A stretch of DNA of 64,000 nt from positions 157,844 through 221,843 of the forward strand of contig JBBTRC010000010.1 in assembly GCA_038065355.1 (NCBI GenBank), written 5' to 3'. The DNA comes from Patescibacteria group bacterium (GTDB taxonomy: Bacteria > Patescibacteriota > Minisyncoccia > Phycocordibacterales > UBA918). Under the pieces are notes generated by a model. That model saw nothing but the letters and a program-made list of their open reading frames with translations, made no database searches and was not told the origin of the DNA. This document shows, piece after piece, positions 22,814 through 62,651 of this stretch. Positions within the stretch are counted from its first letter, which is position 1, and each line of letters begins with the position of its first letter. The translations under genes were made by a program, and so were the position numbers.

Positions 22814-22815
22814 GT

Positions 22816-27243: not shown

Positions 27244-27261
27244 GGTCGATCTCCTTTCGAA

Positions 27262-27300
27262 GTTGTTGCAAGCTCAAAAATGGGGGTCATCGCAATGCAA
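27262..27300 (-). terminator. terminator after the coiled-coil gene (minus strand)
   Basis: The minus strand reads gggggtcat cgcaatgca atgacccccattttt. Confidence 0.65.
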
Positions 27301-27322
27301 TGACCCCCAGGGTGGCCTCGAA

Positions 27323-28693: not shown

Positions 28694-29020
28694 GTCATTG
28701 TCCTTTCTCTAGGTTGATTGTTTTAGAATGATATTTCGTTGTCAACGAACAGCCGAAATACCTACTAAGATATGACGGTTCGCTACCCACATGTATATAC
28801 CATTTTTAGTGTATTGTCAAGTTTTTGTAGCCTTTGGTATAGCTATAGATTGCTATTTTTGGGCTTTCTGGTATTGTAGCGGGCACGACGAACTTGGAGA
28901 TTCTAACTAGAAAACCCAGTCGTTGAAGGCGAGTTTTGGCGGCAGCCAATACGAGCCGGATTTATAAGGAAACACGTCACCAATTCTAGGTGATACGGTT
29001 TCATCACCTAACCAACATAC

Positions 29021-33033: not shown

Positions 33034-33062
33034 AACGCTTCTATATACTTCGGCAATTATGT

Positions 33063-33098
33063 ACAAAAAACCAACCCCAGAGGTTGGTTTTTTGTATG
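33063..33098. terminator. bidirectional terminator after secY
   Basis: aaaaaaccaacc ccagag ggttggttttttg. Confidence 0.8.
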
Positions 33099-33111
33099 CG
33101 CGTGTTAAAGA

Positions 33112-33837: not shown

Positions 33838-33902
33838 AAACTACTTGACCAAATCCAAGAAAGTAGTACATTTAAGTTAATTTTAAACTTAAAGTTTAAA
33901 AT

Positions 33903-34709
33903 ATGTCTAAACGAAATGTAGAGAATACGATAATACAACTCCTTGGCAACGGGAGTTTAGAAAAACAAATATTAATTGACCGGGTTGTTAAACAGTCTCA
34001 CGTGACCATTCAGGCTGTGTATAAAAACCTGCGCAAACTTACGGTGAGGGACAGTATTACAATCCATAAAAAGTCAGTTAGTCTCACGTTGTTACACATT
34101 GAAAGAGAATTACAGTATTGGGAAACTGTCTCAGGGGTCTATCACACACGGCCGCTTGCGAGCCACTTTCTCGGCTTGCGTGAAGGCGATTCACTTAGTT
34201 TACGATTTAAAAATCTGAACGAACTTGATACGTATTGGGTACATGCTTTTTTACTCTTAGAAAGACAGCTACCTAAAAACTTTCCTACGTACTCTGTCAT
34301 TCCCCACGACTGGTTCTACTATGGTCGTCGGGAGACTGATGTTTTTTGGACACAAAAACAAAAACGTAAACAACGACTCATAGTGACCCATCCTGACAAA
34401 ATTGACATGTTGGCGCTTCGCGAACGAAGGAAACAAGGTTATGAAATGACACCCAGTGTAAATCCTCTCCACCAGGAGGAGCACGAGTATTTCACAGTCG
34501 TTAGCGACTGGGTATTTAAGGTGACTATTGATAAAAAGTTACATGCAGATTTACTACGAATAACACAACAAGCACGGGCACTCGAAAATATTGATCAAGT
34601 TTCTTTACAAAAATTACTTTCCAAGCGTGGTCAAAACACCATGAAGATATACAAGAGTAAAAAACGTGCTGATGTAATAATTAAAAAAGTGCAGAAGTAC
34701 TTTGAATAG
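33903..34709 (+). CDS. hypothetical protein with a probable N-terminal winged-HTH
   Basis: 268 aa from an AT-rich region (~38% GC); no family recognised. Confidence 0.5.
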   Translation: MSKRNVENTIIQLLGNGSLEKQILIDRVVKQSHVTIQAVYKNLRKLTVRDSITIHKKSVSLTLLHIERELQYWETVSGVYHTRPLASHFLGLREGDSLSLRFKNLNELDTYWVHAFLLLERQLPKNFPTYSVIPHDWFYYGRRETDVFWTQKQKRKQRLIVTHPDKIDMLALRERRKQGYEMTPSVNPLHQEEHEYFTVVSDWVFKVTIDKKLHADLLRITQQARALENIDQVSLQKLLSKRGQNTMKIYKSKKRADVIIKKVQKYFE

Positions 34710-49929: not shown

Positions 49930-50072
49930 CATATATTTGTATGATAACGCACGACGACTCAAATTTCGAGTCGTCAAGGTGCAAAGTGAAAAATATGCAA
50001 TAAGGGGATGCGCGTCATAAAGTTGGTCGGAATGGCATGTAAGAGTTTCAAGCAGTTCCCGTCTATACCCGT

Positions 50073-50690
50073 ATGAGTAACACGAAGCGTGTTTTGTTGA
50101 TACTCACAGTCATCGCGGTGGCTGTGGGTACCTTTTTAATTATCAGATCGTGGTTCTTTAGTCAGTCCAAAGTGGTTGGAGTAACGGAATCCATTTCACA
50201 CCCGGAACTCTATCTTTCCTTCACCTATCCAAGCGGAGAAGAAGCCTACAGTCTCATTGAACGACCAGGCACTTCCGAATCGCTCACGCATGCCTTCATC
50301 ATTATGAAAACCGATGAGTACATAGCACTACAAGCAAACCAAAACGAAGGAGATGCTCCGCCGGCGATCAGTATTTTTGTTTTTCCTGAAGCTGAACCAG
50401 AAGACGTCCCAAGCACCACCGAGCGGGCCGGGCGCATTACTCGTCTCCAAAATTGGGCCACTGACAACAAAAACCTTACCTCAATTCACCTTGCCAAAAA
50501 TACTCCAGAGGTGGTCGAGCTCGATGGCGTCAAAAGTCTCTACTACCAAGCCGACGGTAACTTTGCGCAAGAGGTCTACCTGGTAAGCTACCACAACAAC
50601 ATCTACATGTTTGTCGGACAGTCACAAAAACCAACCGACCAAATTACCACTGTCTTTAAAGACCTCATCGCTTCAGTCTCGTTTGACTAG
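50073..50690 (+). CDS. hypothetical membrane-anchored/secreted protein
   Basis: 205 aa with an N-terminal TM anchor. Confidence 0.5.
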   Translation: MSNTKRVLLILTVIAVAVGTFLIIRSWFFSQSKVVGVTESISHPELYLSFTYPSGEEAYSLIERPGTSESLTHAFIIMKTDEYIALQANQNEGDAPPAISIFVFPEAEPEDVPSTTERAGRITRLQNWATDNKNLTSIHLAKNTPEVVELDGVKSLYYQADGNFAQEVYLVSYHNNIYMFVGQSQKPTDQITTVFKDLIASVSFD

Positions 50691-50809
50691 TGCTTGAGAA
50701 ACCTGCACTCGGCACGGCTTTCACCCGGCGCGGCTTTGTGCACACAGATCACTACGCTTACGAGCCAAACATGACATCATTATGGGTATAGTCAGTAACC
50801 ACAAGAGTC

Positions 50810-52528
50810 ATGTCATTCATATTGATTGTCGTTCTGTTCATCTATGCTGCCAGTCTTGGTGGTCGGATCAGCAAACTTGAGAAACTGCTTGAAAAAAATC
50901 CGAACCAATCTCCCGCCACTTCATCCGTAGCGTCCATGTCTATTTCCGAGCAAGTCTCAGCTACTGTGCCAACCATGCCTGACTCACCGTCAGCCGCAAA
51001 AGAAGATAAGCTGTGGAAATTCATCAGCGAGGATTTTTTAGTAAAGTTGGGAGCACTCTTGCTCGTACTAGCCTTTGGCTGGGTTGTGAGCTACGCTTTC
51101 GCGCACAACTGGATAGGGCCGGTCGGTCGTATCGTGCTCGGAATTGCGGCTGGTATGGCAACGATGACCTTTGCCACAGTGTGGCTTCGCACACATTTTC
51201 ACCAGGGAGGAATCTTCATGGTACTGGGACTCTCTATTTTTAACCTTACGCTGTTTGCGGCGCGGTTTTTATATGGATTTCTGTCTCCAGAAATTGCATT
51301 AGGGCTTATGTATCTTGCAGCTGTCTACGTTACCTTGCTAGCGGTATTTTATCGTAGTCAGCGTCTCGTGCTAGCGAGCTTGTTTTTTGCCGGTGTCGCA
51401 CCCCTTTTGACAGCTGGTGAGCCGGACTTCTTGGGACTCTTTTCGTACCTGATCGTACTAGTTTTGAGCTTCTTGTGGGTCGTATACGTGCGGGGGTGGC
51501 ACGCTATTGCCTTTGCGTCGCTAGTGGTTGTGGCTCTCTATAGCGTGCCCTACGTGCTTGCTCCAGCAAGTCTACCAAGCCCGTTTACAGGTTTACTTTT
51601 TGCTTTTCTCTTCACTGCGATTTTTACGCTCTTTAACAGCGTCAGTATTTTGCGTGCTCAATCACAGGTTCTCTATGAACACATCGTCACTGGCTTGAGT
51701 GCAGCTATGTTTGTGCTCTTATGGATTCTCCAAGTTGCGGCAACAAACCACCAAGTAGCTTATTTAGTTATTTGGTCCATCTTCTTCTTTGCCTTAGCGT
51801 TTGTATTTTTGTTTGTATTCAAGCATCGAAGCGCTTTCTATCTTCAAAGTGGTGTTGCAATCATTTTGCTGTTTGCGGCAACCGCCCTCAAATTAGATGG
51901 TCCAGTGCTCACCCTTGCCTATACAGTTGAGACCGGCATTCTCGTGCTCTTCTCGTATGCGCTCTTGCGCGATGTGGTAGTGACACGAAGGTTAAGTTGG
52001 TTATTTATTGGTCCAGTGCTCCTCTCGTTTGAAAGTATCGTATCAGCAGCGTGGCAGGACGGTTTTTTGCACGAAGACTTCTTTATTTTACTCGTTCTTA
52101 CTGTCACCCTGGGTGGAGTCGGCTTACTATTTAGACAATTACACCAAGCAACACCCGACAACAAACTTTCGGAAACCATAAAAACAATTCTATACACTGC
52201 CGGTACATATGCCCTTATGCTTCTATGGCTAACGCTCCATGCTGCGCTTGCTTCGGAAGATACTGCGACAACAATTGCGCTCATCATCTACACGATTTGT
52301 GGACTCGCCGCCTATATACATGGTCGCACCAATCACATCAAGCACTTTGAGTACGCAGGAATACTATTACTTACACTCGTCGTTGGGCGACTACTCATTA
52401 TCGACATCTGGAAAATGGAGCTCTTTGAACGCATCGTTACATTCTTCTTGATCGGAGCGTTGCTTATAAGTACGGCATTTTACGGTCGCACGCGTCAGTT
52501 ACTCGACGCTCAAAAGCCATCAGTATAA
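50810..52528 (+). CDS. large polytopic membrane protein (>=12 TM), possibly DUF2339-like
   Basis: 572 aa with a short N-terminal coiled segment, then hydrophobic throughout. Confidence 0.5.
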   Translation: MSFILIVVLFIYAASLGGRISKLEKLLEKNPNQSPATSSVASMSISEQVSATVPTMPDSPSAAKEDKLWKFISEDFLVKLGALLLVLAFGWVVSYAFAHNWIGPVGRIVLGIAAGMATMTFATVWLRTHFHQGGIFMVLGLSIFNLTLFAARFLYGFLSPEIALGLMYLAAVYVTLLAVFYRSQRLVLASLFFAGVAPLLTAGEPDFLGLFSYLIVLVLSFLWVVYVRGWHAIAFASLVVVALYSVPYVLAPASLPSPFTGLLFAFLFTAIFTLFNSVSILRAQSQVLYEHIVTGLSAAMFVLLWILQVAATNHQVAYLVIWSIFFFALAFVFLFVFKHRSAFYLQSGVAIILLFAATALKLDGPVLTLAYTVETGILVLFSYALLRDVVVTRRLSWLFIGPVLLSFESIVSAAWQDGFLHEDFFILLVLTVTLGGVGLLFRQLHQATPDNKLSETIKTILYTAGTYALMLLWLTLHAALASEDTATTIALIIYTICGLAAYIHGRTNHIKHFEYAGILLLTLVVGRLLIIDIWKMELFERIVTFFLIGALLISTAFYGRTRQLLDAQKPSV

Positions 52529-53980
52529 GTCTGTTCGTGTAATAAAAAGCGGCTCTGCACGCGCGGCTGTTTCGAGGCAGGTGGTTTTAAAATCCTGTGC
52601 CAGTGTTTCGCACATAGCGACGGTGTCGGTGTACGAGCCGATCTGGTTGAGGTACATGCCGACAGCACCATTTTGGCAGGACACGCTGTCTTGACGAAGA
52701 TTTTGTGAGCTACAGAGCGCAAATACCAACGCGGGTGTATGCATATTGCGTTTCATTGTTTCGGAACCAATGCCAGAGAGACAGCTTGATTTAAATTTTC
52801 CCGCCTGGCTACACAAAGAAAACATGTCCCCAAAAGACACTTTCGCGGTTTGCGAAAGGTAGGTCGGTACATAGGTGTAACACTCACCTTGTGCGATAGA
52901 ACGCGAGTTGCATACCGAAAACGGATTGTCTGGATCAACCGCTCCTTTTTCATTGGCTAAAATTTCCTGGTTGAACACTTCCATGTAGGCACCATTCTGG
53001 CAACTTTCCGCGCCGCTACCGACAAACCCCTCGGCGCAAAGAGCGAGGGAGGCGTCAAGGTTGCCGCCAGTAAAATACATGAAGCCGTGACCGACCCCGT
53101 GGTGGCACTGCCACAAGTCAAACAATCGACTGCCAAGCGATGCGTACGCGCGACACTCGGCCGCCAAGTCTTTTAATGGTTCATCTCCGGACGCGAAGTG
53201 GCTTTCAAAAAGTCCGTGAATGTAGCCCGAGTTGCAAAAGTCGCTTTGAAACGCAATCGCGTCGCCAAAACTGCCATATTTTGCATATGCCGCCTTACCA
53301 ATGTCGTGCAGAATGTCGTGACATAGCGCCGCCACTTGGTCGGCTGTGTCTGATTCTGCGCGTAGTGTTTCTATGGCCACTCGAGGGTTGGACTCTTGCA
53401 CCAGCGAGACATACTTATCACGAAGCTTTTCGTACGCGTCGGTCGCAACGCTACCAGTAAGCAGGTCATTTCCGCTTTCTTCGTTTTTTGCGAACCAGTC
53501 ACTAAGCGTGTCGACTGCTTTTCGCCACCAACTTTGCAGAGAATGAAAGATGTTAGCACTCGATTTTTCTTCACCACTCACGGTCACTGTGCCGACAAAC
53601 TGCGGCCAAAAGTGATCGTGAAAAGGGAACACCCCGTTTTTTGTAAACGTAAAAGACCAAGTCGAGCCGGGCGTGATACCGTCGCACGCGTCAAAAGTGG
53701 GAGCATGGTCAGAATCGCAATGTTCCTCAAGGCCGGTGCCGTCGTAGAGAGTGTGGCTGGGGTGATGGTCAGTGGCTGGCCAGAATTCACTTTTCCCGAC
53801 GTTTTCAAATTGCACGGTGGTGCCGGGCGGAACGGTTATCTCACTTTGACGATACCCAGATTCGTCAATATGGATAATAATCGTCGATGAGTTCGTACTC
53901 TCATGGGCGAGGGCGAGATTGGTCACCGACAGGCCGACTAGCAAAAGGAGAAACGTAGTGAAGTTGGCCATGGTCGTCAC
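52520..53980 (-). CDS. secreted Cys-rich protein with an N-terminal cupredoxin-like beta-sandwich
   Basis: 486 aa with a signal peptide, a His/Cys cluster (WPATDHHPSH...HCDSDH) and many paired Cys downstream. Confidence 0.45.
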   Translation of the reverse strand: MTTMANFTTFLLLLVGLSVTNLALAHESTNSSTIIIHIDESGYRQSEITVPPGTTVQFENVGKSEFWPATDHHPSHTLYDGTGLEEHCDSDHAPTFDACDGITPGSTWSFTFTKNGVFPFHDHFWPQFVGTVTVSGEEKSSANIFHSLQSWWRKAVDTLSDWFAKNEESGNDLLTGSVATDAYEKLRDKYVSLVQESNPRVAIETLRAESDTADQVAALCHDILHDIGKAAYAKYGSFGDAIAFQSDFCNSGYIHGLFESHFASGDEPLKDLAAECRAYASLGSRLFDLWQCHHGVGHGFMYFTGGNLDASLALCAEGFVGSGAESCQNGAYMEVFNQEILANEKGAVDPDNPFSVCNSRSIAQGECYTYVPTYLSQTAKVSFGDMFSLCSQAGKFKSSCLSGIGSETMKRNMHTPALVFALCSSQNLRQDSVSCQNGAVGMYLNQIGSYTDTVAMCETLAQDFKTTCLETAARAEPLFITRTDLY

Positions 53981-54038
53981 TATTGTACCAAAACATCTTT
54001 CATTGTTGTCTCATCAGAAAAGAGTATGATAAGACTGT

Positions 54039-54491
54039 ATGTGGCCAAAGAAGGACAAGCCAAAAATCCTCATCGTTGAAGACAACGAAAGTAACCATCC
54101 GCTCTTTAGAGAATCCTTCGAGCAGGCTGGTTTTGACGTCATCATTTCGCAAAATGCCGACGGAGAATTTGCCGAAGACGTAGCCGCGCTCAAGCCCGAC
54201 ATTATTTCGATGGACATCATGATTGGAAAATTAGGTGTTGCCATACAACGGGATGGTCTACAGACCATTCAGCTATTGAAAAGTCGCAAAGAGACAAAAC
54301 ACATTCCGATTATCGTGATGAGCAGTTTGTATGAAGAAGGGAAGGTGCGGCAGGCGAAGGCACTCGGTGCCGCCGACTTTGTCAATCTACAAGGACACGC
54401 GATTACCAGAGTACCCGACATATTCAAAAAGTACTTAACACATCCCGACCAGTACCACCCCACCCATCCGATTTTTAGGGAAATGAAATAA
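54039..54491 (+). CDS. single-domain response regulator (receiver only)
   Basis: CheY-like (ILIVEDNESN...IISMDIMIG). TATGAT lies 8 nt upstream of the ATG. Confidence 0.75.
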   Translation: MWPKKDKPKILIVEDNESNHPLFRESFEQAGFDVIISQNADGEFAEDVAALKPDIISMDIMIGKLGVAIQRDGLQTIQLLKSRKETKHIPIIVMSSLYEEGKVRQAKALGAADFVNLQGHAITRVPDIFKKYLTHPDQYHPTHPIFREMK

Positions 54492-54730
54492 AAACGAACA
54501 CCCTATCATGTTTGGTATTGGGGGAATTTCTCTTGTTCGCTCACTCCTTTGATTTACTTCATGTTTCTCTCACGAATGAGGGTTATATTGGAGATGGGTC
54601 TTTGGCAAGGTCGTCGTATTCAGTCGTGCCGTCGAATCGGTTTCGATGGCTGCTGTACAGTTATACCACTCGACATTTACCACTGCGTTGCAATAATTAG
54701 ATAGAACTTATACGTTAATGCAAAAGCATT

Positions 54731-55168
54731 ATGAAATTGTTTTATTTTTCACCGGCGTACGAAAACTGGGCGCCAACTGTCGTGCGCATATTTTTTGGAT
54801 TCCTCTTTTTGATGAGTGCGTACTATAAAATTCCCGGCACCGCGACTTTTTCGGCGCAAGTCGAAATGTCTGGCGCTGTTGGCATCCCGCTCCCATTCAT
54901 TGCAGTCATTCTTGCCTTCATTCTTGAAATAGTAGCCGGCGTTGCCCTTATTATTGGCTGGCACACTCGCACAGCGGCCATCGTGCTCGCCGCCTTTGTG
55001 GTCCTTATTATCCTTTTCTTCTACCGAGACTGGACCGATCAGGCAAATTTCGCATCTTTCATGAGCGGCCTCGCTGAAGCGGCCGGACTTATCTACATTT
55101 CAGTCTATGGAGCGCAACACGCCGCTGTCGCCAAAGACCAACCCCCGCACCACTTGCAGCGGGTTTAG
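54731..55168 (+). CDS. DoxX-family membrane protein
   Basis: 145 aa with 4 TM and a DoxX-like N-terminus (RIFFGFLFLMSAYYKI). Confidence 0.65.
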   Translation: MKLFYFSPAYENWAPTVVRIFFGFLFLMSAYYKIPGTATFSAQVEMSGAVGIPLPFIAVILAFILEIVAGVALIIGWHTRTAAIVLAAFVVLIILFFYRDWTDQANFASFMSGLAEAAGLIYISVYGAQHAAVAKDQPPHHLQRV

Positions 55169-55192
55169 CTCTTGCCCCCACCCGCCCCATAC

Positions 55193-55217
55193 AAAAACTC
55201 CCGCAAGGGAGTTTTTT
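55193..55217. terminator. bidirectional terminator at the left boundary of the AT-rich island
   Basis: aaaaactcccgc aa gggagttttttg. Confidence 0.7.
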
Positions 55218-55268
55218 GTGTGTCGAGATTTTAGCTCGAAGTTAAAATTCACCTGATCAATATCTAAT

Positions 55269-56351
55269 TTAGTGCAGAATCGTCAAAAGCGGATCAAAAC
55301 GGAATAGTTTGTTTCTGCTCCTGTTTCCAATTTCGAATACATAACCTTTTTTTTCCAGGCTTCGAATCAGGTTTGTTGCGGTTAGGTAGCTCGCACATTT
55401 CGTGTGTTCCTGGACCATTTTGATAGTGAAGATGGGAGAGATGAATAGCATATCAATGAACGGAATAATATAGGGTGACTTTACACCATTGTAGGCTCGC
55501 CGAATGTCGTAGTATAGCTCGTAAATAGCTTCGATAATTTTTTGAGTCTCGTTAAGTTGCCCAGATACAGATTGTAGAAAGAATTTAAGCCACTCCTCAA
55601 TGTCGTTTCCTTCGTCGATCGCATGTAACTTATCAATGTACTCATCTCGATGGTCCTCAAAGTATCCACTTAAATAAAGTATAGGAGAAGACAGGCGTTG
55701 TTGTTTGTGTAACACGAGAGGAATAAGCAGTCGACCTATACGACCGTTACCATCGTCAAAGGGGTGTACAGCCTCAAACTGGTAATGAGTTATACCCGCT
55801 TTGAGGAGGGCGTTTTCTTTCCCGTTATTTATGTAATCGAAAAGATTATTTATCAAACCGCGCACGTGTATGGGTTCAGGTGGGATGTAAATCGCTTTTT
55901 CAATAGAGTCTCCAGCTCTTTCTGCAATCCATACTTGCCCCTCCCTAAATTTACCCAAGAGTCCTTTATGACGTACATCCTCAAGCAGAACGCTGTGTAG
56001 GCTCTCTATTAGGTGACTAGTAACATCTCTACTTTTTCCAATTTCTCTCATCGCGAGACTCATGGCACGACGATAATTCACTACCTCACGAATGTCCGCG
56101 TGCTTAGTTTGTTCACCAGCGTCAAACATGAAAACATCTGCAACGTCACTTTGTGTGCCTTCAATCTTTGAACTCATGACAGCTTCTTTTGCTGTAAGGG
56201 GAGATATCAAAAGGTCCGGATTCTGTAACTTCTTCTGAGATCCCTCAAGCAGTCCAAGAGCGTACTCAGCAGTTGAAAGTTCGTTAGCAAACTTGTTGTA
56301 GTCAAGAGTAAGACCTTCGGTGTCAAGAGGCTTTATTTGGGCCGGTTTTTT
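55269..56351 (-). CDS. Fic/DOC-family protein (AMPylation-type)
   Basis: Fic motif HPFDDGNGRIGR. The start is taken at MKKPAQIKPL. AT-rich. Confidence 0.85.
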   Translation of the reverse strand, partial: KKPAQIKPLDTEGLTLDYNKFANELSTAEYALGLLEGSQKKLQNPDLLISPLTAKEAVMSSKIEGTQSDVADVFMFDAGEQTKHADIREVVNYRRAMSLAMREIGKSRDVTSHLIESLHSVLLEDVRHKGLLGKFREGQVWIAERAGDSIEKAIYIPPEPIHVRGLINNLFDYINNGKENALLKAGITHYQFEAVHPFDDGNGRIGRLLIPLVLHKQQRLSSPILYLSGYFEDHRDEYIDKLHAIDEGNDIEEWLKFFLQSVSGQLNETQKIIEAIYELYYDIRRAYNGVKSPYIIPFIDMLFISPIFTIKMVQEHTKCASYLTATNLIRSLEKKGYVFEIGNRSRNKLFRFDPLLTILH

Positions 56352-56437
56352 CATAAGAATAAGTGTATTCCTTGTATATAAGAATGTCAAGTTTCTTATA
56401 TACAACTCAGTTTTAGTTATAACAGCTTATAGGTGAG

Positions 56438-56896
56438 CTAAAGCGTCTTCCATCCTAGCTCATATTTTCCCGCAGGGTTCATTTCTAATTCATCAAATAA
56501 GTAAAATTTCTGGACAACTATTTTGTACCAACGATGGCCGTCTTCCTCTGACTGTTCTTCCAGAATTGAAGCATCACTATTAAATCTTTGATTGTAAGTT
56601 TGAAACGCTACTTGATCTTTTGTCACGTTATGTAACATTTCAATTAAGCCTTCAAAATAGACGCCCCGTACTGATTCGTCTTTCTTGTGTTGTCTGACTA
56701 TATTTCCCGCAATTTGGTTGTTTTGGCTTACTTCAACACTGTGACGGCGATTGGGTCGTGACACAAAGTAGAAGTTTAATTCGTCATCGTAAGAATAGTG
56801 AACTTCCGAAATCCAGGGTTTATTTTCATGGGATGTCGCAATAGACATGTGAACTATGTCTTCTAAATAGTTACGAATTATTGCCTCAACTTTCAT
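56438..56896 (-). CDS. pyridoxamine-5'-phosphate-oxidase-like FMN-binding split-barrel protein
   Basis: 152 aa, weak family resemblance (MSIATSHENKPWISEVHYSYDD). Confidence 0.45.
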   Translation of the reverse strand: MKVEAIIRNYLEDIVHMSIATSHENKPWISEVHYSYDDELNFYFVSRPNRRHSVEVSQNNQIAGNIVRQHKKDESVRGVYFEGLIEMLHNVTKDQVAFQTYNQRFNSDASILEEQSEEDGHRWYKIVVQKFYLFDELEMNPAGKYELGWKTL

Positions 56897-56991
56897 TGAT
56901 AGAGTATAGCAAAATAAAAGTCAGTTTCGAACATTCTTCAGGCTCTCAAAAATACGCAAAAGGAGCGTCGTAGAATAAAACTTGTTAGTAG

Positions 56992-57072
56992 GGAGCAGTT
57001 TTCTTCGAGTCAAAATCGATTTGATTCAAATTGAGCGCGCGTCATTTTTTGAAGCCTGTCGATTTGTAGTAG
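56992..57072 (+). repeat. intergenic ~80 bp repeat, copy A
   Basis: Matches the consensus GGAGCAGTTTTCT..AG..AAAA...TTTGATTGAAATGGA.......GAATTTTTTGAAG....GTGGATTTGTGGTAG shared with copies B-E. Confidence 0.85.
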
Positions 57073-57097
57073 TCGGAATAAGTTATAATTGTGTCTT

Positions 57098-57973
57098 ATG
57101 GAAATGTGGTTTTGGCTTGCTCTGGCTTCTGCAGTGACTGGAGGAATAGGAGCATTTACACATAAAGTTGCAGCTGTTTGGAATGTAGATATTACTGTTC
57201 TAAATACCTACTCTTCTGTTATATCAGCCACTATTCTTTTTTGTTGCACTTGGTATTTCGCGGGATTCGATTCGTTTTGGACTCTCTCGACAGTTATCGC
57301 ATTTGTCGGTGCCACAACCTACCTATTTACTCTTATATTAAAGGTTGAGTCACTTCGAGAGATAGACTCGGCTATTTTTTTTCCATTGTATAAAGTGTCG
57401 GGTCCACTATTTGCGATTATTCTGGGAATTATCTTCTTTTCAGAATCCTTTTCTCGCACCGAATGGCTAGGACTTACCTTTAGTTTACTGGTTCCGTTGT
57501 TGTTGATTACCAGATCTGAAAACACACGTCAGAAAAATCTGTACCGGGGTATCTATATACTACTGGTCGCTTCGGTTGTTGGTTCAATTTCCATTGCCTT
57601 GTTTAAATATGGGACCGATATTACTCAGAATGTCTGGCTCTATCTCCTAGTAAGTGATTTATTCTTAGCCTTTTCATCCGTCCTTGTTTTGCTCAGAAAA
57701 TATAAGTCGGGCACGGTTTTGCATATGAAATCTGAAACGACACCTCGGTCATTAAAACTAGTCGGTGTGATGGGGCTGGCTCAGGCGAGTGGCGCAGCGA
57801 CAATAATTTTTGCTTTTTCAGTTGGTGGAACACTGGGGATTGTGTACACCATCAATTCGCTTTACATCCTTATTCCGATTGTCCTCTCAATCATTTTTTA
57901 CAACGAACATTGGAACCTAAGAAAAGCTGTAGCTATACTACTTTCGGTTATGGCATTAGCGTTGCTACAGTAA
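57098..57973 (+). CDS. DMT/EamA-like 10-TM transporter
   Basis: The start is taken at ATG 57098 (MEMWFWLALAS), 8 nt after a TATAAT. The ORF track uses the upstream TTG. Confidence 0.55.
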   Translation: MEMWFWLALASAVTGGIGAFTHKVAAVWNVDITVLNTYSSVISATILFCCTWYFAGFDSFWTLSTVIAFVGATTYLFTLILKVESLREIDSAIFFPLYKVSGPLFAIILGIIFFSESFSRTEWLGLTFSLLVPLLLITRSENTRQKNLYRGIYILLVASVVGSISIALFKYGTDITQNVWLYLLVSDLFLAFSSVLVLLRKYKSGTVLHMKSETTPRSLKLVGVMGLAQASGAATIIFAFSVGGTLGIVYTINSLYILIPIVLSIIFYNEHWNLRKAVAILLSVMALALLQ

Positions 57974-57984
57974 TTTTGCTCCGT

Positions 57985-58064
57985 GGAGCAGTTTTCTTCA
58001 AGTAAAAATTTCTTTAATTGAAATGGAATGTCCGAATTTTTTGAAAATTGCTGACTTGTAGTAA
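57985..58064 (+). repeat. intergenic ~80 bp repeat, copy B
   Basis: Same family and same orientation as copy A. Confidence 0.85.
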
Positions 58065-58127
58065 GTCTATCTTTTAACAAAGTTCATTTTGATGCCAAGC
58101 TTATTTCATTGGTGTATGATTGAAATA

Positions 58128-59273
58128 ATGAAAAACAAAATATTTATTGGTGGGGCACTGAGTGTCATGGTTATTGTCGCATTTGTTTTAGTTTCCAAAT
58201 CAAATCCTCATAGTGCAGGGTCACCTATCACCTACACGGAAGATGGCGACATCAGCGTGGTATCGAGCGACGGTCAAGCTACGCTCATTTTGCCACCAAC
58301 AGCGCTGCCAGAAGGAGTGCAACCAACAGATCTCGCGATCATACCTGTGAGTGCTAGTGAAGTATTTGGAACCGACGGCGATGCAGCCGAAGGCCTTGCC
58401 TACAAGCTGCTGCCCGATGGAGCAACGTTCAGCGAGCCGGTGGTGGTGAGCATCACGAGCGGTATCACTGGCGACGTGTTGCCGACGGTGTTGCACACGA
58501 GCGGCGAGTCGGTATCGTTCCTTACCCCGCAACTTGTGATCATTGATCCTGCCCAAAACACCCAAACGCTCGCGTTCGAGGTGTCGCACTTCAGCAAGGT
58601 CGGCGTAGACGCTAACCGCGGCCTCTTCCACTACCGTTTTACCGGCGGAGGGAGTGCTAAGGTAGGTGAAACTCTCCCGTACAAGATTGAGGTGTGGCCG
58701 GATTCCTACAACCACTTCTACGACACCAAAGGTGGTTACAAATGGACCAGAGACACCTACTCAGGAGAGGGGTTTTACTACCGCTTCGCTCCTGGCGGCT
58801 GGTACGATATCAAAGATTGGAGCTTGAACGATTGGCGCGGCATCCTCACGCCTCAAAAGGTAGATGTTACAGGCCGCCGGAATCTTAAGGAGAACGACGT
58901 CTATACGTACGAGATGACCTTAACCTGCGCTGCGCCGGGTACTACCAACCCAGTCACCTCGAACATTGGCGTGGCGTACCGCTCCGCTCGAAGTAGCTCA
59001 GGTAGGGATTGGGAGTACCAGACCGACTGGACGTATCTATTCGTGTACCCATCTGACTTCACCTGTACCAGCGAGGGTGATGAACTGCCAGTCATCGAGT
59101 ACCTGAGCGGGGCCGAGTCCGCCTCGACTCGAAGCATGATTGGCTTGACGAAATACGGTGACGTCACACTGCCAAACTGGCGGTTCTTTGAAGATGGGTA
59201 CGAAGATACTGGGGAGGGAATGACCGTGATTGATCCACCGCCGCTGATCATAAACACGCCGACTGTGCGCTAA
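58128..59273 (+). CDS. hypothetical secreted or membrane-anchored protein
   Basis: The start is taken at MKNKIFIGGALSVMVIVAFVLV. A ~380 aa domain with no family recognised. Confidence 0.5.
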   Translation: MKNKIFIGGALSVMVIVAFVLVSKSNPHSAGSPITYTEDGDISVVSSDGQATLILPPTALPEGVQPTDLAIIPVSASEVFGTDGDAAEGLAYKLLPDGATFSEPVVVSITSGITGDVLPTVLHTSGESVSFLTPQLVIIDPAQNTQTLAFEVSHFSKVGVDANRGLFHYRFTGGGSAKVGETLPYKIEVWPDSYNHFYDTKGGYKWTRDTYSGEGFYYRFAPGGWYDIKDWSLNDWRGILTPQKVDVTGRRNLKENDVYTYEMTLTCAAPGTTNPVTSNIGVAYRSARSSSGRDWEYQTDWTYLFVYPSDFTCTSEGDELPVIEYLSGAESASTRSMIGLTKYGDVTLPNWRFFEDGYEDTGEGMTVIDPPPLIINTPTVR

Positions 59274-59344
59274 GGTCGCGCCGGCGGCTCGTCGTCAGGA
59301 ACAAAAATCGCTCACGCAGTGAGCGAGGCGATTTTTGTACTCGT

Positions 59345-59424
59345 GGAGCAGTTTACTAGCGACAAAAACTAATTTGGTTGAAATGGAATACCAAAATTTC
59401 TTGAAGCTGATGAATCGGTAGTGG
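59345..59424 (+). repeat. intergenic ~80 bp repeat, copy C
   Basis: Same family and same orientation as copy A. Confidence 0.85.
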
Positions 59425-59466
59425 TGGGTGCTTTACACAAGTATATACTTTGTATATACTATACGC

Positions 59467-59706
59467 ATGAAAACTAAAATTCAAAAGTGGGGCAATAGTC
59501 TTGGGGTGAGACTGCCAAAAAGTATTGCTGAGCAGAAGTCTTTGAAAGCAGGCTTGGGTGTGTCAGTAGTACTTAGAAATAATCAAATTGTGATTGAGCC
59601 AGCAGAGGAAGAATTGTCACTTAACTCGCTCTTGTCTGCGGTTACGGCAGATAATATTCACAAAGAGACAGAGTGGTCAGACGCACGCGGAAACGAGGTA
59701 TGGTAA
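59467..59706 (+). CDS. mazE: MazE/AbrB-SpoVT-family antitoxin
   Basis: MKTKIQKWGNSLGVRLPK swapped-hairpin motif. Confidence 0.8.
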   Translation: MKTKIQKWGNSLGVRLPKSIAEQKSLKAGLGVSVVLRNNQIVIEPAEEELSLNSLLSAVTADNIHKETEWSDARGNEVW

Positions 59707-60044
59707 AAAAATCCTATATCCCAGACAGAGGTGATTTGGTCTGGGTCGATCTTAATCCTACCAAAGGTAGAGAACAAGCAAAGGTGCGACCTGCAATGGT
59801 GATATCTCCTAAAACCTACAATCAAAAAACTGGCCTAGCCATTATGTGTCCAATAACCTCTGTGTCTAAAAGATACCCTTTTGAGGTTATGGTAAATGAC
59901 AAGAAGGTCTCTGGTGTTGTTTTGTCTGATCACGTCCGGTCTCTTGACTGGAAAGCGCGAAACGTAAAATATATCACTAAGGCGAAAGTCGGTATTGTTG
60001 TTGAAGTTCAAACAAAACTCGGACTGCTCATTTGCAATAAATAA
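59700..60044 (+). CDS. mazF: MazF/PemK-family toxin endoribonuclease
   Basis: MVKKSYIPDRGDLVWVDLNPTKGREQ...RPAMVISP. The start overlaps the mazE stop as ATGGTAA. Confidence 0.85.
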   Translation: MVKKSYIPDRGDLVWVDLNPTKGREQAKVRPAMVISPKTYNQKTGLAIMCPITSVSKRYPFEVMVNDKKVSGVVLSDHVRSLDWKARNVKYITKAKVGIVVEVQTKLGLLICNK

Positions 60045-60099
60045 AGAAGTTCACTCGAGGGAATGGACTCTCATGTTGTTCTATATTCTTCTACATTAT

Positions 60100-60177
60100 G
60101 GAGCAGTTTTCTCTGAGCTGAAACCAGTTTGATTGAAGTAGAGTGCACGAATTTTTTAAAGTAGTGGATTTGTGGTG
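60100..60177 (+). repeat. intergenic ~80 bp repeat, copy D
   Basis: Same family and same orientation as copy A. Confidence 0.85.
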
Positions 60178-60238
60178 AAAAGAAAACACCCCGCCGCCAA
60201 TATCGGAAGCGGGATGCTTCAGTGGCGTGGGGTGGTGA

Positions 60239-60808
60239 CTACTGTCGTGCTTTCGTTAGAGCGGCGCTGACAACTTCAGGCATCGTCTCATAGAACGTGA
60301 AAGGCTCCTTGGAGGCGGCACTGAACTCAAAGAGAATCACATCAAGTCCGTGGAATGCTCTGTCTCCACCCACCACCACTCTGGTCTGTGTCATCTCGGT
60401 GTAAGCAGTGAACTTTCCGATCTCACGTCGCGTATCCATGGCGTAAGGTTCTGGTCCAGGATGAGGACTCTGTTCACTTTCGGGTCCGAGCCAAAAAATC
60501 ACACAGCCCGGCGTGTCGCGTTCGCGGCCGGCCTGATGCAGGTAATGACGCTCCCATTCCAGCTGCCGATTGTCGGCTTTCGAGAAAGGCTGATAAAAGT
60601 GACGCGCCAGCCTGTGGCTGTCGGTCCACCGAGACGGGCAGGTGATTAGAGCCTTCGGCTCTTGGTCGATGATTGTCTCGGCCATGCTTGCCTGCCAGTC
60701 ACCACCACCTCTAATTGGTCCCGCCAGAAACAGGAGTGGTGAACTGTGTGTCGGTGTCAACTGAACGATTTTCTTCGGTACGTAGATGGTCACGGAGTCT
60801 CCTCTCAA
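60239..60808 (-). CDS. nucleoside 2-deoxyribosyltransferase-like Rossmann protein
   Basis: 189 aa with an LFLAGPIRGGGDWQ N-terminal motif; weak. Confidence 0.4.
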   Translation of the reverse strand: MRGDSVTIYVPKKIVQLTPTHSSPLLFLAGPIRGGGDWQASMAETIIDQEPKALITCPSRWTDSHRLARHFYQPFSKADNRQLEWERHYLHQAGRERDTPGCVIFWLGPESEQSPHPGPEPYAMDTRREIGKFTAYTEMTQTRVVVGGDRAFHGLDVILFEFSAASKEPFTFYETMPEVVSAALTKARQ

Positions 60809-60898
60809 AGTTGAAGAACGAATTTACAAAACAATACAATAGAAGTATTGTTTTGTAAATAGAGGTTTTAACATCTCGCCTTCGTTTCAGAAACACGC

Positions 60899-60931
60899 AA
60901 AACGAGCCTTATATGATAAGGCTCGTTTTGC
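60899..60931. terminator. bidirectional terminator
   Basis: aaaacgagcctta tatga taaggctcgttttg. Confidence 0.7.
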
Positions 60932-60945
60932 TTCAGTTTTTGGTC

Positions 60946-61024
60946 GATCAGTTTGATCCAGGTAAAAACCTCTTTGATTGAAATGGAGGCTGTGAATTTT
61001 TTGAAGATCGTGGATTTGTGGTAG
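60946..61024 (+). repeat. intergenic ~80 bp repeat, copy E (5' end more diverged)
   Basis: Same family and same orientation. It ends exactly at the ASCH stop codon. Confidence 0.8.
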
Positions 61025-61354
61025 TTATCCTCGAGTGAAGTCGAACTGGATTATTTTCAATTCAGTGTCGGGGCTAACTCTGTCACCATAATACTGTTTA
61101 TATATGATATACATCTCCTCGTCAGAACTGAATCGTTCATGACCTTCCCAGTCACTGTCATCAAGTGTACCGAGAGTTTTTGTATACAAAGTAATGACTT
61201 TTGCAGTACCAAACTGTTCTAGAGTCTCTTTGTTAAGGAAGACAAGTTCGTCTCCCGTCTGTAAGTCTTTGTCATCAAATAGTCGCCAAGTCGATGTCTT
61301 CGTACCTTCAAGTATTTGTGTACATAGTTCAGGAGCGAATTTTAATGTTTTCAT
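61025..61354 (-). CDS. ASCH-domain protein
   Basis: The start is taken at MKTLKFAPELCTQILEGTKTSTWR, an ASCH N-terminal signature. Confidence 0.7.
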   Translation of the reverse strand: MKTLKFAPELCTQILEGTKTSTWRLFDDKDLQTGDELVFLNKETLEQFGTAKVITLYTKTLGTLDDSDWEGHERFSSDEEMYIIYKQYYGDRVSPDTELKIIQFDFTRG

Positions 61355-61434
61355 GTGTCTGAGTATACCAAAAACATAAAAGCTTACCCTCACGAGTAAA
61401 CTTTCATGTTGTTCCATAGACTTCTATCTTTATG

Positions 61435-61827
61435 TGGAGATGGCGGGAATTGAACCCGCGTCCGAGTCAGGGTGCGATTATGAGTCTACAGTGCGTAGTT
61501 GATCCTTTAGTTTAAAGGTGGTGGCTAGAGGAAAAACAAAACACCACTACCTCGAGTTGTTACAAGCTCGGAAAACCTACGACAACGGCAGAGGTTTCCA
61601 CAGTCTCATGGCTATTCTACGAGACACACCGTACGAGACCCTTGGTGTGTTCGCATCGCTCCGGCGGCGTAAAATTTACGCGAATGCGGGAGCGAATCCA
61701 AACGCGCGAGCGTAAGGACTTGGTACTGCTTTGTTTGCAGATACAGGTGGAACCTTTTAACGAATTGGTTGCCATTTTCGACACTGCACACAACCGACAC
61801 GACTAACCGTCGATGCCTAGCATCCCC
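61435..61827 (-). ncRNA. ssrA: tmRNA (transfer-messenger RNA)
   Basis: The minus strand begins with the 5' end GGGGAUGCUAGGCAUCGACGG (conserved UCGACGG). The 3' tRNA-like end is GGACGCGGGUUCAAUUCCCGCCAUCUCCA: a T-arm GCGGG/UUCAAUU/CCCGC and an acceptor 3' strand CAUCUCC pairing with the 5' GGGGAUG, including G3:U70. CCA is not encoded. The internal reading frame GCA AAC AAA ... GCG UAA gives the tag ANKAVPSPYARAFGFAPAFA. Confidence 0.85.
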
Positions 61828-62198: not shown

Positions 62199-62651
62199 TT
62201 ACGCGGAATCAGATTTCAATAGTCTATTGGTGTCACGCTGGCTATCTCGTTTCTTAATGGTCTCTCGTTTATCGTATTTTTTCTTGCCTCGCACAAGCGC
62301 AATTTCAAGCTTAAGGGTGCGCTTGTCGGCATAGAGTTTCAGTGGAATGACGGTGAGGCCGGCCGTTTCCGTTTCTCGCTCGAGCTGTGTGATCTCTTTT
62401 TGGTTCAAAAGGAGTTTGCGCGGCCGCTCCGGATCGTAGCCTTTCTCCGTGTTGCCGGCTTGGTAGGGAGCAATGTGCATATTTGCCACAAATGCTTCTT
62501 TTCCGCGTACTATCACGTAGGCACCCTCTAGTCGCGCTTTGCCGGCACGGACGGCCTTTACTTCAAAGCCGCGCAACACCAAACCCGCCTCGATGGTATC
62601 GATGATGTCGTAGTCAAAATGGGCTTTACGGTGGGTGCTGTATGTCGGCAT
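62199..62651 (-). CDS. smpB: SsrA-binding protein
   Basis: 150 aa SmpB family (FDYDIIDTIEAGLVLRGFEVKA) with a C-terminal basic tail. Confidence 0.93.
   Translation of the reverse strand: MPTYSTHRKAHFDYDIIDTIEAGLVLRGFEVKAVRAGKARLEGAYVIVRGKEAFVANMHIAPYQAGNTEKGYDPERPRKLLLNQKEITQLERETETAGLTVIPLKLYADKRTLKLEIALVRGKKKYDKRETIKKRDSQRDTNRLLKSDSA

Follow-up and report, generated by a model that had tools for sequence, protein, structure and literature searches.

A one-orientation array of repeat-bounded gene cassettes behind the tmRNA gene in Patescibacteria, apparently an undescribed integron-like capture site

Described systems related to the ssrA-linked array

Genomic islands at the tmRNA gene ssrA have been described in Dehalococcoides, and the array reported here resembles them in several respects: the insertion point is the 3' end of a tmRNA gene that is present once and stays intact; the units lie in tandem and in the same orientation downstream of ssrA, with a direct repeat at each boundary; the region varies by strain or species; and some of the units do not contain integration genes (PMC3146451). 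The authors of that study proposed that units lacking integration genes are cis-mobilisable (PMC3146451). The boundary repeat in Dehalococcoides is 20 bp long and copies the end of ssrA on its 3' side (PMC3146451), whereas here it is ~82 nt in length and unrelated to ssrA except for 5-6 bp; in addition, the units here are mostly 0.75-1.4 kb in size with one or two genes, and a recombinase was found in none of about 30 arrays. Integrative islands that target tRNA or tmRNA genes and grow by accretion are more general kin of the array.

Integrons and CALINs share with the array a single fixed insertion point (attI there, the ssrA 3' end here), small cassettes with one recombination site each at the distal end, a short shared core at every junction, one orientation throughout, heterogeneous cargo that includes toxin-antitoxin pairs, and reshuffling between genomes. 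The differences are that the repeat here showed neither the hairpin nor the boxes of attC when tested, that no intI adjoins the array and that the anchor is an RNA gene; moreover, the cassettes here are complete expression units in either orientation, whereas those of integrons are promoterless ORFs read from a promoter of the platform.

In the hyperplastic regions of T4-type phages, "mobile regulatory cassettes" termed PeSL were reportedly described by Arbiol, Comeau and Krisch in about 2010. PeSL modules are short, conserved intergenic sequences with features of a promoter and a stem-loop; they delimit cassettes of a single gene and are linked to modular shuffling, for which homologous recombination between regulatory repeats at any place of the phage genome is the presumed route. 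Short conserved modules at cassette boundaries recur in the array. Its junctions, in contrast, are precise to the nucleotide, the flanks being unrelated, and its place is fixed behind ssrA in a cellular genome. The pdif modules or IMEX are small units of one or two genes, often toxin-antitoxin or resistance genes, which are moved by the host XerC/D; pdif sites are 28-bp mimics of dif with two inverted 11-bp arms and alternate in orientation around the modules. Small units bounded by short sites are common to both systems, and the pdif recombinase is encoded elsewhere. Here, in contrast, no dif-like dyad is visible around the core, all sites point in one direction and the target is ssrA, not dif. 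The IS200/IS605-derived PATEs and IS91/ISCR elements insert in a specific orientation by a target of 4-5 nt, have no terminal inverted repeats, and have non-autonomous derivatives that are mobilised in trans; their ends are set by subterminal hairpins that the transposase recognises. Oriented insertion beside a short target and the lack of terminal inverted repeats recur in the array, whereas no significant fold is seen in the repeat and the opposite end of the cassettes lacks conservation. The locus described below is apparently an integron-like gene-capture site not described before.

Repeat copies, genes and end modules of the window

The window, i.e. the whole stretch of 64,000 nt that was analysed, contains five copies of the repeat, all in the + orientation, within positions 56991-61027 just past the 3' end of ssrA. 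Five copies in one orientation had been listed in a preliminary description of this DNA, at positions that agree with ours within 1-3 nt; its gene list is correct according to Pfam annotation, and the 3' end of ssrA does face the array, as had been stated there. The features of the region are as follows.

55269-56405, minus strand: SoFic-like Fic gene (PADLOC SoFic, E = 5e-101), distal flank
56438-56896, minus strand: PNPOx-like gene (Pfam), distal flank
56991-57075, plus strand: repeat copy 1, distal-most, opening the EamA cassette; core GGGAG
57098-57973, plus strand: EamA-family transporter gene (Pfam PF00892, E = 8.5e-7), cargo
57984-58067, plus strand: repeat copy 2, opening the secreted-protein cassette
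58116/58128-59273, plus strand: secreted-protein gene, product with an N-terminal hydrophobic segment, cargo
59305-59343: type-Z end module; terminator-like hairpin (bidirectional), then GTACTCG
59344-59427, plus strand: repeat copy 3, opening the mazEF cassette
59467-59706, plus strand: mazE, of a toxin-antitoxin pair with mazF (Pfam PF04014 and PF02452 for the pair), cargo
59700-60044, plus strand: mazF, of the same pair, cargo
60045-60098: type-X end module of the mazEF cassette, abutting the TGGAG of copy 4 and homologous to the ssrA-adjacent flank
60099-60181, plus strand: repeat copy 4, opening the NDT-like cassette
60239-60793, minus strand: NDT-like cargo gene with weak nucleoside 2-deoxyribosyltransferase-like similarity (Pfam PF15891, E = 0.009, under the curated cut-off)
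60809-60943: type-Y end module of the NDT-like cassette
60944-61027, plus strand: repeat copy 5, at the ssrA-distal end of the ASCH cassette; core degenerate, TCGAT not TGGAG
61025-61417, minus strand: ASCH-domain gene (Pfam PF04266; start codon at 61354 or 61417), cargo of the ssrA-adjacent cassette
61355-61434: type-X end module of the ASCH cassette, abutting the TGGAG of ssrA
61434-61827, minus strand: ssrA, the tmRNA gene (ARAGORN; Rfam RF00023, 100 bits, E = 1e-38)
62199-62651, minus strand: smpB (Pfam PF01668), conserved neighbour on the other side of ssrA

A profile built from the five copies matched each of them at E = 2e-21 to 4e-19, the next match in the 64 kb having E = 0.3, and it revealed no copy outside the 4-kb array in the other 60 kb of the window. 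A 40-nt IUPAC pattern likewise matched the five copies and nothing else in the window, with 0 matches expected (100 shuffles). The copies are 63-74% identical in pairwise comparison, and their conservation falls into the blocks GGAGCAGTTT, AAGT.AAA, TTTGATTGAAATGGAG, AATTTYTTGAAG and GTKGATTTGTGGT. No decayed copies or end modules were found at 50001-56990; the SoFic-like and PNPOx-like genes of the distal flank may be older cargo. For the protein encoded at 58116-59273 no family match was found.

The last five nucleotides of ssrA (...CUCCA) appear as TGGAG at 61435-61439 on the + strand, and the gene is best read as the anchor of the array, an attB- or attI-like target. Copies 1 to 3 end about 22, 48-60 and 39 nt, respectively, ahead of + strand starts, in agreement with the earlier statement that three copies stand shortly upstream of such starts; a TATAAT hexamer (57085-57090, found by eye in the sequence) follows copy 1, and promoter-like sites lie between repeat and gene at copies 2 and 3. 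The type-X module of the ASCH cassette contains a minus-strand terminator-like hairpin (61410-61373) immediately past the ssrA 3' end and a -10-like TATACT ahead of the ASCH start. In the type-Y module of the NDT-like cassette there are a perfect palindrome of 39 nt (60822-60860) and a terminator-like hairpin (60897-60931) that is bidirectional, in addition to a promoter-like site for the minus-strand gene. A terminator-like hairpin is present at every ssrA-facing cassette end, which is expected if every cassette once lay directly behind ssrA.

The repeats had previously been suggested to be attC-like sites, MITE or REP elements, or sequences supplying promoter or terminator functions. Folding of the repeat gave a z of about 0 on both strands (from -2.9 to +1.2 for DNA folding of single copies), and the consensus fold of 37 copies reached -0.6 kcal/mol with five AU/GU pairs. 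No imperfect palindrome, no R''/R' boxes (RYYYAAC/GTTRRRY) and no extrahelical-base architecture were found in the repeat, and terminal inverted repeats are absent. Since it shows no fold, attC boxes or terminal inverted repeats and is not dispersed, the repeat is excluded as an attC, REP or MITE. A promoter or terminator role is contradicted by the adjacent genes, half of which are wrongly oriented, and by the terminators, which lie in the end modules to the left of the repeat.

These results bear on the idea that the array is the remnant of a chromosomal integron (CALIN), whose repeats would be attC sites recombined as folded single strands by IntI. A same-orientation array of short repeats, with units of one or two genes of unrelated functions and toxin-antitoxin cassettes among them, would suit such a remnant. 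However, besides the missing palindrome, boxes and fold, the genes run in both directions with their own promoters and terminators, and an intI gene is absent from the 64-kb window. Integron or CALIN membership is refuted by the fold tests, and we give this idea almost no credence.

The repeat family, its junctions and reshuffling among genomes

The repeat family comprises 38 distinct copies at about 30 Patescibacteria loci from unrelated metagenomic or MAG samples, smpB having served as a handle to locate related loci. A tmRNA gene was captured at 10 loci, and at all 10 the copies follow downstream of its 3' end, on the strand opposite to it and in the same relative orientation; another locus has them behind a tRNA-Ala 3' end. 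Each matched genome of a species-representative collection has one repeat locus, and sequence searches found no copy in phage, plasmid or viral contigs. A generic intergenic repeat of the REP/BIME or MITE kind, clustered here by chance, would also be short, AT-rich and multicopy, but such an origin is very improbable for a sequence that is ~74% conserved among species that share just 50-67% identity in SmpB, has no inverted repeats or palindrome, is confined to a single locus per matched genome and the 4-kb array of the window, and always stands behind ssrA in one orientation.

Different, reshuffled genes in the same layout recur at about 30 other loci. A unit opens with G|TGGAG and the repeat; one or two genes, at times more, follow under a promoter of their own, and an end module with a terminator closes the unit. 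After the end module comes the next TGGAG, with which a further repeat or ssrA itself begins. This pentamer is complementary to the five final bases of the tmRNA and was present at the end of all tmRNA genes examined. At one identical position, G|TGGAG, the repeat is met by more than 20 left flanks that are unrelated to one another, among them the chromosomal ones of distal-most copies. When the left flanks were clustered as 110-nt sequences, type X had 14 members, 4 adjacent to tmRNA genes and 10 to repeats, with 80-90% identity over about 60 nt, and type Z had 2 tmRNA-adjacent members and 1 repeat-adjacent member; the type-Z module of the window also abuts the tmRNA genes of loci L009 and L014. 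At L011 one and the same flank stands beside both tmRNA and repeat. Type Y abuts two repeats plus a partial copy of the tmRNA 3' end; the flanks of UBA6201 that are homologous to the module at 60809-60943 of the window stand beside a repeat and this partial copy. Many other left flanks are singletons.

The homology of shared cassettes begins no more than 11 nt from the TGGAG of the repeat in all six comparisons, and between L020 and L024 it extends up to the next TGGAG. Homologous cassettes (mazEF, a Gp49/HTH toxin-antitoxin pair, ASCH and a VOC enzyme) have differing positions and neighbours in different genomes. The Gp49/HTH pair lies beside ssrA in L020 and distally in L037; in L019 an ASCH cassette comes after it, and in L013 and L024 different cassettes do. 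Counting from ssrA, mazEF is cassette three in the window and cassette two in L014, where the pair, 71-78% identical to that of the window, comes directly after the sole repeat. The ASCH homologue of L019, which follows a repeat, is 77% identical to that of the window, and a VOC gene between two repeats is 93% identical in L008 and L021. Repeats beside homologous cassettes are 75.7% identical versus 74.4% for random pairs (p = 0.26), so that only the alignment boundaries speak for repeat and cassette travelling together. As to cassette gain or loss, for which the preliminary description had suggested comparing strains, the source population is fixed for its cassettes, so that shuffling is seen only between species. 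All contigs from the source aquifer (groundwater) have one identical array, which gives no sign of current activity.

Proposed cassette capture and its alternatives

With slightly better than even confidence, we propose that the array consists of site-specific cassettes mobilised in trans and inserted at the ssrA 3' end. That recombination sites bound the cassettes of an array at a tmRNA integration hotspot had been put forward before as a general idea; comparative support now comes from the recurrence of the repeat around different genes behind ssrA in many genomes, from the TGGAG-precise junctions and from the changes of position and neighbours of shared cassettes. The 4 kb behind ssrA would represent five small mobile cassettes, each inserted site-specifically at the 3' terminus of ssrA, and the ~82-nt repeat would be the recombination site of the cassette, functionally an analogue of an attP arm or of attC, read as double-stranded DNA. 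A circular cassette, probably with the junction end module-G|TGGAG-repeat, would undergo crossover, presumably within the 6-7-bp core GTGGAG common to the repeat and the ssrA end, and would come to lie directly behind the intact tmRNA gene, transcription of which would then be halted by the cassette's own terminator. If insertion took place again and again, at ssrA or at a repeat already present and probably with a preference for the ssrA end, older cassettes would be shifted outward and a same-orientation array would result. The recombinase would act in trans, from elsewhere in the genome or from another element, and is most likely a tyrosine recombinase.

Several findings weigh against this proposal, among them the invariance of the array in the source aquifer and the lack of copies on phage, plasmid or viral contigs. 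The adjacent integrase or recombinase that the preliminary description had suggested looking for was found neither in the 64-kb window nor at any locus searched, i.e. in 150 ORFs from 26 repeat loci and in three further 20-kb ssrA neighbourhoods. No circular contigs or excision junctions of cassettes were seen. The repeat-ssrA identity is just 5-6 bp with no inverted core-type binding sites flanking the core, and conservation extends to one side of the core alone, an unusual trait in a classical attP.

Shuffling of the units without a dedicated recombinase, by homologous recombination between repeated boundary modules as in the PeSL model, is in our judgement unlikely. The repeat and end modules would then be conserved as regulatory or protein-binding sequences, and their recurrence at boundaries would let RecA-type recombination excise and reinsert units, perhaps after natural transformation, for which cultivated Saccharibacteria are competent (PMC10633639). 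It would agree with the lack of a recombinase near any array, the stability of the array in the population and the terminator-like and promoter-like signals in the end modules; an end module plus repeat provides about 150 nt of homology at many boundaries, and a crossover within a shared X module would also place X beside both ssrA and a repeat. Homologous recombination could not, however, create junctions that join more than 20 unrelated flanks, distal chromosomal ones included, at one nucleotide. Furthermore, ssrA and the repeat have 5-6 nt in common, yet four flank types stand beside both; the repeat contains no promoter, terminator or fold and its adjacent genes lie in either orientation; and confinement to the ssrA 3' end in a single orientation is not predicted.

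A further alternative, which we regard as quite improbable, is that the units are non-autonomous derivatives of single-strand or rolling-circle transposons (IS200/IS605 PATE- or IS91/ISCR-like) served by an HUH transposase in trans. Insertion would occur 3' of the pentanucleotide CTCCA (tmRNA sense strand), and the reverse complement of the repeat would form the right end, ...CTGCTCCA. The recurrence of a 5-nt target at all junctions, the pentamer as sole target duplication, the strictly single orientation, the lack of terminal inverted repeats, the one-sided conservation and the units without their own enzyme are all consistent with this. But neither strand of the conserved end forms a subterminal hairpin (z about 0), the opposite end is not conserved across the family (types X, Y and Z and many singletons), a crude motif scan of 204 ORFs and the Pfam tallies brought up no Y1/HUH signature, and CTCCA occurs genome-wide while copies were seen only behind ssrA or tRNA-Ala.

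As to their contents, the arrays carry toxin-antitoxin pairs, restriction-modification genes, ThsA-Macro and small detoxifying enzymes, with SoFic as a neighbour, and these kinds of cargo are typical of mobile islands. The NDT-like gene is shortened to 66 aa in the sample ERZ1292633.

The repeat family and its genomic address

The preliminary description of this DNA had placed five direct copies of an intergenic repeat beside ssrA, dividing a row of genes, and the copies, the gene order and the location were all borne out. The features concerned are the following, with the copies numbered towards ssrA.

56991-57075, + strand: repeat copy 1, between the PNPOx-like and EamA genes
57984-58067, + strand: repeat copy 2, between EamA and a secreted protein without family
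59344-59427, + strand: repeat copy 3, between the secreted protein and mazEF
60099-60181, + strand: repeat copy 4, between mazEF and a weakly NDT-like gene
60944-61027, + strand: repeat copy 5, between the NDT-like gene and ASCH
61434-61827, - strand: ssrA (tmRNA gene), its 3' end facing the array, with smpB just past it

The copies are about 82 nt in length and their pairwise identity is 63-74%, concentrated in five blocks. With a profile built from the five, each copy was detected at E = 2e-21 to 4e-19 and the next best match in the 64 kb had E = 0.3; a later profile of 38 copies agreed with it on the window. A 40-nt degenerate pattern gave exactly these five matches in the window, where none is expected by chance. 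The profile searches revealed no copies in the other 60 kb, and neither fossil repeats nor end modules (the left flanks described below) were found distal to copy 1. At 54589-54600, 2.4 kb past the last repeat and in the intergenic region that separates a response-regulator gene from a DoxX gene, the sequence TGGAGATGGGTC resembles the start of the ssrA 3' end (TGGAGATGGCGG); it could be due to chance (about 0.5 occurrences are expected for the 9-mer) or be a fossil junction like the TGGAGATGTG remnant of L024, one of the related metagenome loci, which we designate by L-numbers with their own coordinates. The gene next past PNPOx, just outside the array (55269-56405, - strand), encodes a Fic-domain protein assigned by PADLOC to the SoFic defence family (E = 5e-101).

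A scan of species representatives with a degenerate pattern, one genome per species, identified the repeat in three other Patescibacteria MAGs, with a single repeat locus per genome. Scanning JGI metagenomes with a consensus pattern added 23 loci, further arrays were found in three ssrA neighbourhoods reached via SmpB homologues, and profile mapping yielded 38 distinct full copies. Each locus carries one to five units, all in one orientation. Wherever the fetched DNA includes the tmRNA gene (the window, L009, L011, L014, L015, L020, L023, L033, L035 and L037), the copies lie downstream of its 3' end on the opposite strand. In the window and the nine other loci the array begins at the base after the terminal ...CUCCA of ssrA, and the target gene is intact. 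No tmRNA gene was present in the 5-6 kb fetched on the expected side of L008 and L025; most of the remaining loci lie on short contigs or are truncated at an edge. The far-side flank is often one conserved block of response regulator, histidine kinase, acetate kinase and phosphoketolase genes, and the array is therefore a variable slot between conserved genes. At L016 (oriented 1438-1697), a repeat-bearing cassette adjoins a partial tRNA-Ala 3' end (TGGACCCGACAGGAATT), followed by an insert of about 70 nt, the rest of the tRNA pseudo-copy, a hairpin and an intact tRNA-Ala(UGC). Thus the family is not strictly confined to ssrA.

Just past the tmRNA terminator, three genomes carry a partial copy, in inverted orientation, of the tmRNA 3' end comprising T-loop, T-stem, acceptor strand and CCA (L009, 5534-5760; L011, about 1310-1450; L014, about 2330-2420; locus coordinates), interrupted by a conserved hairpin of 21-23 nt (GAAAGCAAAgCAGTTTGCTTTC). 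In L009 this segment is an insert of about 220 bp delimited by 22 nt of the ssrA 3' end in direct duplication. A similar partial tmRNA end closes L017 (oriented 1150-1234). The segment is absent from the window and has no Rfam match; it could encode a small RNA or be what is left of a different element that targets ssrA.

Unit anatomy, junctions and the search for a recombinase

Read in the orientation of the repeat, a unit begins between G and TGGAG and consists of TGGAG, the conserved stretch of about 80 nt, a cargo of one or two genes, more in a few cases, that may face either way, and an end module of 40-110 nt. The TGGAG that comes next is the start either of a further repeat (TGGAG-CAGTTT...) or of the tmRNA gene (TGGAG-ATGG...), the pentamer being the complement of the last five tmRNA nucleotides. 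Three of the window cassettes face + and two face -, with promoter-like and terminator-like sites inside them. Terminator-like hairpins in the end modules (61410-61373, 60931-60897 and 59326-59308) face the direction of ssrA transcription, and the end modules of minus-strand cargo also have a -10-like element right before the start codon, as read from the sequence; the cassettes are therefore complete expression units. The terminator of each would halt ssrA transcription were that cassette directly behind ssrA. A promoter role of the repeat itself was rejected, because half of the adjoining genes point toward it. A perfect 39-nt palindrome at 60822-60860 (ATTTACAAAACAATAC TTCTA TTGTATTGTTTTGTAAAT) overlaps the promoter-like site that precedes the NDT-like gene and may be an operator; it is the cause of a weak STnc250 Rfam match at 60842-60936.

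More than 20 unrelated left flanks meet the repeat at one identical nucleotide. When the 110-nt left flanks were clustered, flank families were found to adjoin both repeats and tmRNA genes.

Left-flank (end-module) families and the sites that they adjoin
Type X: 14 members; 4 at tmRNA genes (window, L015, L020, L023) and 10 at repeats, including window copy 4
Type Y: at window copy 5, at a copy in UBA6201 (another repeat-bearing genome) and at a partial tmRNA 3'-end copy in UBA6201
Type Z: at the tmRNA genes of L009 and L014, and at window copy 3
L011: one flank common to its tmRNA gene and its repeat

In all six comparisons of shared cassettes the alignment starts no more than 11 nt from the TGGAG of the repeat, and that of L020 with L024 runs on to the next TGGAG; each repeat is therefore assigned to the cassette that lies ssrA-proximal to it. 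Repeats beside homologous cassettes were no more similar to one another than random pairs (75.7% against 74.4%, p = 0.26). The base preceding TGGAG is G at 7 of 7 tmRNA junctions and in most copies, so that the shared core is GTGGAG. Five copies deviate at positions 5-8 (TGGAAATC, TGGAAGAC, TGGACATC), which would be compatible with a putative exchange region of 7-8 bp. The repeat shares with ssrA only TGGAG and the preceding G. Its derivation from a diverged tmRNA 3'-end copy was discarded: the shared ATTGAA and GTCCGAG stand at different offsets, and the profile gave only E = 0.04-0.3, in the wrong register. A target-site duplication of a Tn7-like/DDE element was ruled out, since the units lack conserved inverted repeats at their termini.

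The adjacent integrase or recombinase to be looked for according to the preliminary description was found neither in the window, where all ORFs were inspected by eye and the unknown ones searched with Pfam, nor in the related loci, which were covered by a 150-ORF family tally, a motif scan, Pfam searches of the large cargo genes and the ssrA neighbourhoods. The tally comprises the 25 most recurrent families among the matches listed, so singletons could escape it. The motif scan gave one match, in L032, that was spurious. A single transposase was seen among all the loci; it is of the IS30 type (HTH_38 + rve), lies inside the array of L028 downstream of the second repeat (1-984, + strand) and looks like an unrelated insertion. 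As to mobile carriers, the repeat was absent from viral contigs (two patterns) and from phage and plasmid records (BLAST), and no circular contigs were seen.

Homologous recombination among the repeated boundary modules, the main rival explanation, accounts for the missing recombinase and could yield the X-type junctions; shuffling by this route has been proposed for the PeSL cassettes of T4-type phages. It leaves unexplained the nucleotide-precise joints with unrelated flanks and the restriction to ssrA, and we consider it unlikely. The best-supported model, which we regard as somewhat probable, is that of site-specific cassettes mobilised in trans. A circular cassette with the order end module, GTGGAG, repeat would recombine with the GTGGAG of the ssrA 3' end, and repeated insertions would give a same-orientation array in which older units are displaced outward.

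Comparison of the repeat with known elements

It had been suggested that the copies be examined for bottom-strand structure like that of integron attC sites. Folding analysis gave no support for such structure: DNA folds of 10 copies on both strands gave z values of -2.9 to +1.2, mostly near 0, and did not beat shuffles, while RNAalifold yielded -0.8 kcal/mol for 5 copies and -0.6 kcal/mol for 37 copies on the + strand, with no pairs on the - strand and no real covariation in the repeat alignment. Hairpins picked by eye (AGAGG/CCTCT, GTTAAAC/GTTTAAT) occurred in differing registers and were no better than shuffles. The 37-copy alignment opens with GTGGAGCAGTTT and closes with GATTTGTGGTG, ends that are not complementary, and contains neither of the attC boxes R'' (RYYYAAC) and R' (GTTRRRY). 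Furthermore, a complete integron has an intI tyrosine recombinase gene, attI and Pc beside the array, whereas no recombinase family was found among the window ORFs or at the neighbouring loci; and integron or CALIN cassettes are mostly promoterless and co-oriented, whereas those of the window have both orientations and their own promoter-like sites. The array parallels an integron functionally, yet differs from it on every structural criterion.

The alternative proposal of a MITE/REP family was likewise given up, as there are no terminal inverted repeats and no palindromic unit, and the copies are not dispersed in the window or in the species-representative scan. The left end of the units bears no relation to the right end, and no repeat copy had an Rfam match at E up to 10. 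The pdif/IMEX modules have dif-like sites of 28 bp, in which a 6-bp spacer separates two inverted 11-bp arms, and these sites alternate in orientation, whereas by inspection of the 37-copy alignment the core lacks dyad symmetry, and all sites are co-oriented. A single-strand mechanism of the HUH type would fit the pentanucleotide target and the strict orientation, but the end hairpins are absent: IS200/IS605 PATE-like elements have Y1-recognised subterminal hairpins at both ends, whereas the conserved end of the unit here has no significant fold and the other end is heterogeneous. We hold this mechanism to be quite improbable. The multi-block, unstructured and one-sided conservation of the repeat suggests that multiple protein contacts are made on double-stranded DNA (arm-type sites) and not on a folded substrate, and multi-site double-stranded binding on the 82-nt site is predicted to involve TTGATT-type direct repeats and the TCTTGAAGA palindrome.

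Insertion at a 3' end, an intact target and tandem units of one orientation are shared with the integrative islands at ssrA and tRNA genes (IME/CIME accretion). However, such an island ends distally in a directly repeated copy of the target gene's 3' portion, typically 15-50 bp, and the array repeat is not such a copy; islands have an integrase gene, usually near the target gene (CIMEs need none), whereas none was found at the arrays. The closest described system is that of the tandem ssrA-specific islands of Dehalococcoides, which have 20-bp ssrA direct repeats and DsiB/DsiA serine recombinases in an integration module, and for which cis-mobilisable units were proposed (PMC3146451). A full-text literature search found no description of the present ssrA cassette arrangement, and a study of horizontal transfer in aquifer Patescibacteria (PMC12455944) makes no mention of tmRNA, integrons or cassettes. 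The array is best read as site-specific tandem insertion at ssrA, and it may prove a distinct cassette-capture system if the enzyme or the reaction is new.

Cassette order, cargo and possible significance

Homologous cassettes occupy different positions and have different neighbours across loci. An XRE-HTH/Gp49 toxin-antitoxin pair, 68-90% identical between loci, adjoins ssrA in L020, has an ASCH cassette after it in L019 and different ones in L013 and L024, and forms the distal unit in L037. The ASCH cassette of the window adjoins ssrA, and its L019 homologue comes after the toxin-antitoxin cassette; counted from ssrA, mazEF takes third place in the window and second place in L014. A VOC-family gene, 93% identical between L008 and L021, has repeats on both sides in each. 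Cargo in other loci includes a MamI-type restriction-modification pair, a type II restriction enzyme, HsdM, a DNA methylase, ThsA-Macro, a DUF4011 helicase, NUDIX, DUF1801 and an acyltransferase. A LOOT RNA (Rfam RF03000; 69 bits, which exceeds the gathering score) was located at 624-739 (- strand) of L025, in a long restriction-modification/ThsA stretch after the repeat, and a weak LOOT-like match is found just downstream of ssrA in L011 (1469-1583, - strand).

In the source aquifer (Hainich well H41; MAG GCA_964357995.1) the cassette order is the same in all contigs, with no strain-level order polymorphism, and the closest SmpB relatives have only 67% identity; evidence of movement thus comes solely from comparisons across long evolutionary distances. 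In sample ERZ1292633 the NDT-like gene was called as 66 aa versus 184 aa with unchanged spacing (L044, 6540-6740; L048, 9142-9342), which reflects either a pseudogene variant or a misassembly.

We tentatively propose, as a possibility short of an even chance, that the arrays represent a previously undescribed gene-capture platform of Patescibacteria, integron-like in working and different in build. The ssrA 3' end would be the fixed site, each cassette would bring a non-palindromic double-stranded partner of about 82 nt, and a recombinase encoded elsewhere, possibly a host housekeeping enzyme or one of a new family, would insert and shuffle self-expressing cassettes that supply toxin-antitoxin, restriction and other defence genes to tiny genomes. 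The genomes of CPR/Patescibacteria are very small, and gene acquisition in this group is poorly understood. If the proposal is true, a defined and recognisable locus gathers small self-contained cassettes, many of them for defence or toxin-antitoxin functions, which would make horizontal gene flow in these bacteria directly accessible to study and provide a simple sequence signature for mining metagenomes for cassette cargo. The precise reaction between the 82-nt site and the ssrA 3' end would be reconstitutable and perhaps serve as an insertion tool in the few tractable Saccharibacteria, and the concept of the cassette array would be widened past integrons to a linear double-stranded site, an RNA-gene anchor and an unlinked enzyme.

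Three other features of the window were observed. Two tandem repeats of 240-252 nt, 71% identical, lie at 13674-14165 within an ORF (12873-14165) for a highly acidic, D/E-rich protein. A co-oriented block at 20506-28708 (- strand), between ribosomal-protein operons, encodes DUF6638, an AAA ATPase and four proteins without family match. A patch of low GC content (38% versus about 50%) at 33001-34706 contains a Vut_1 vitamin-uptake transporter gene and a 269-aa ORF without family match.
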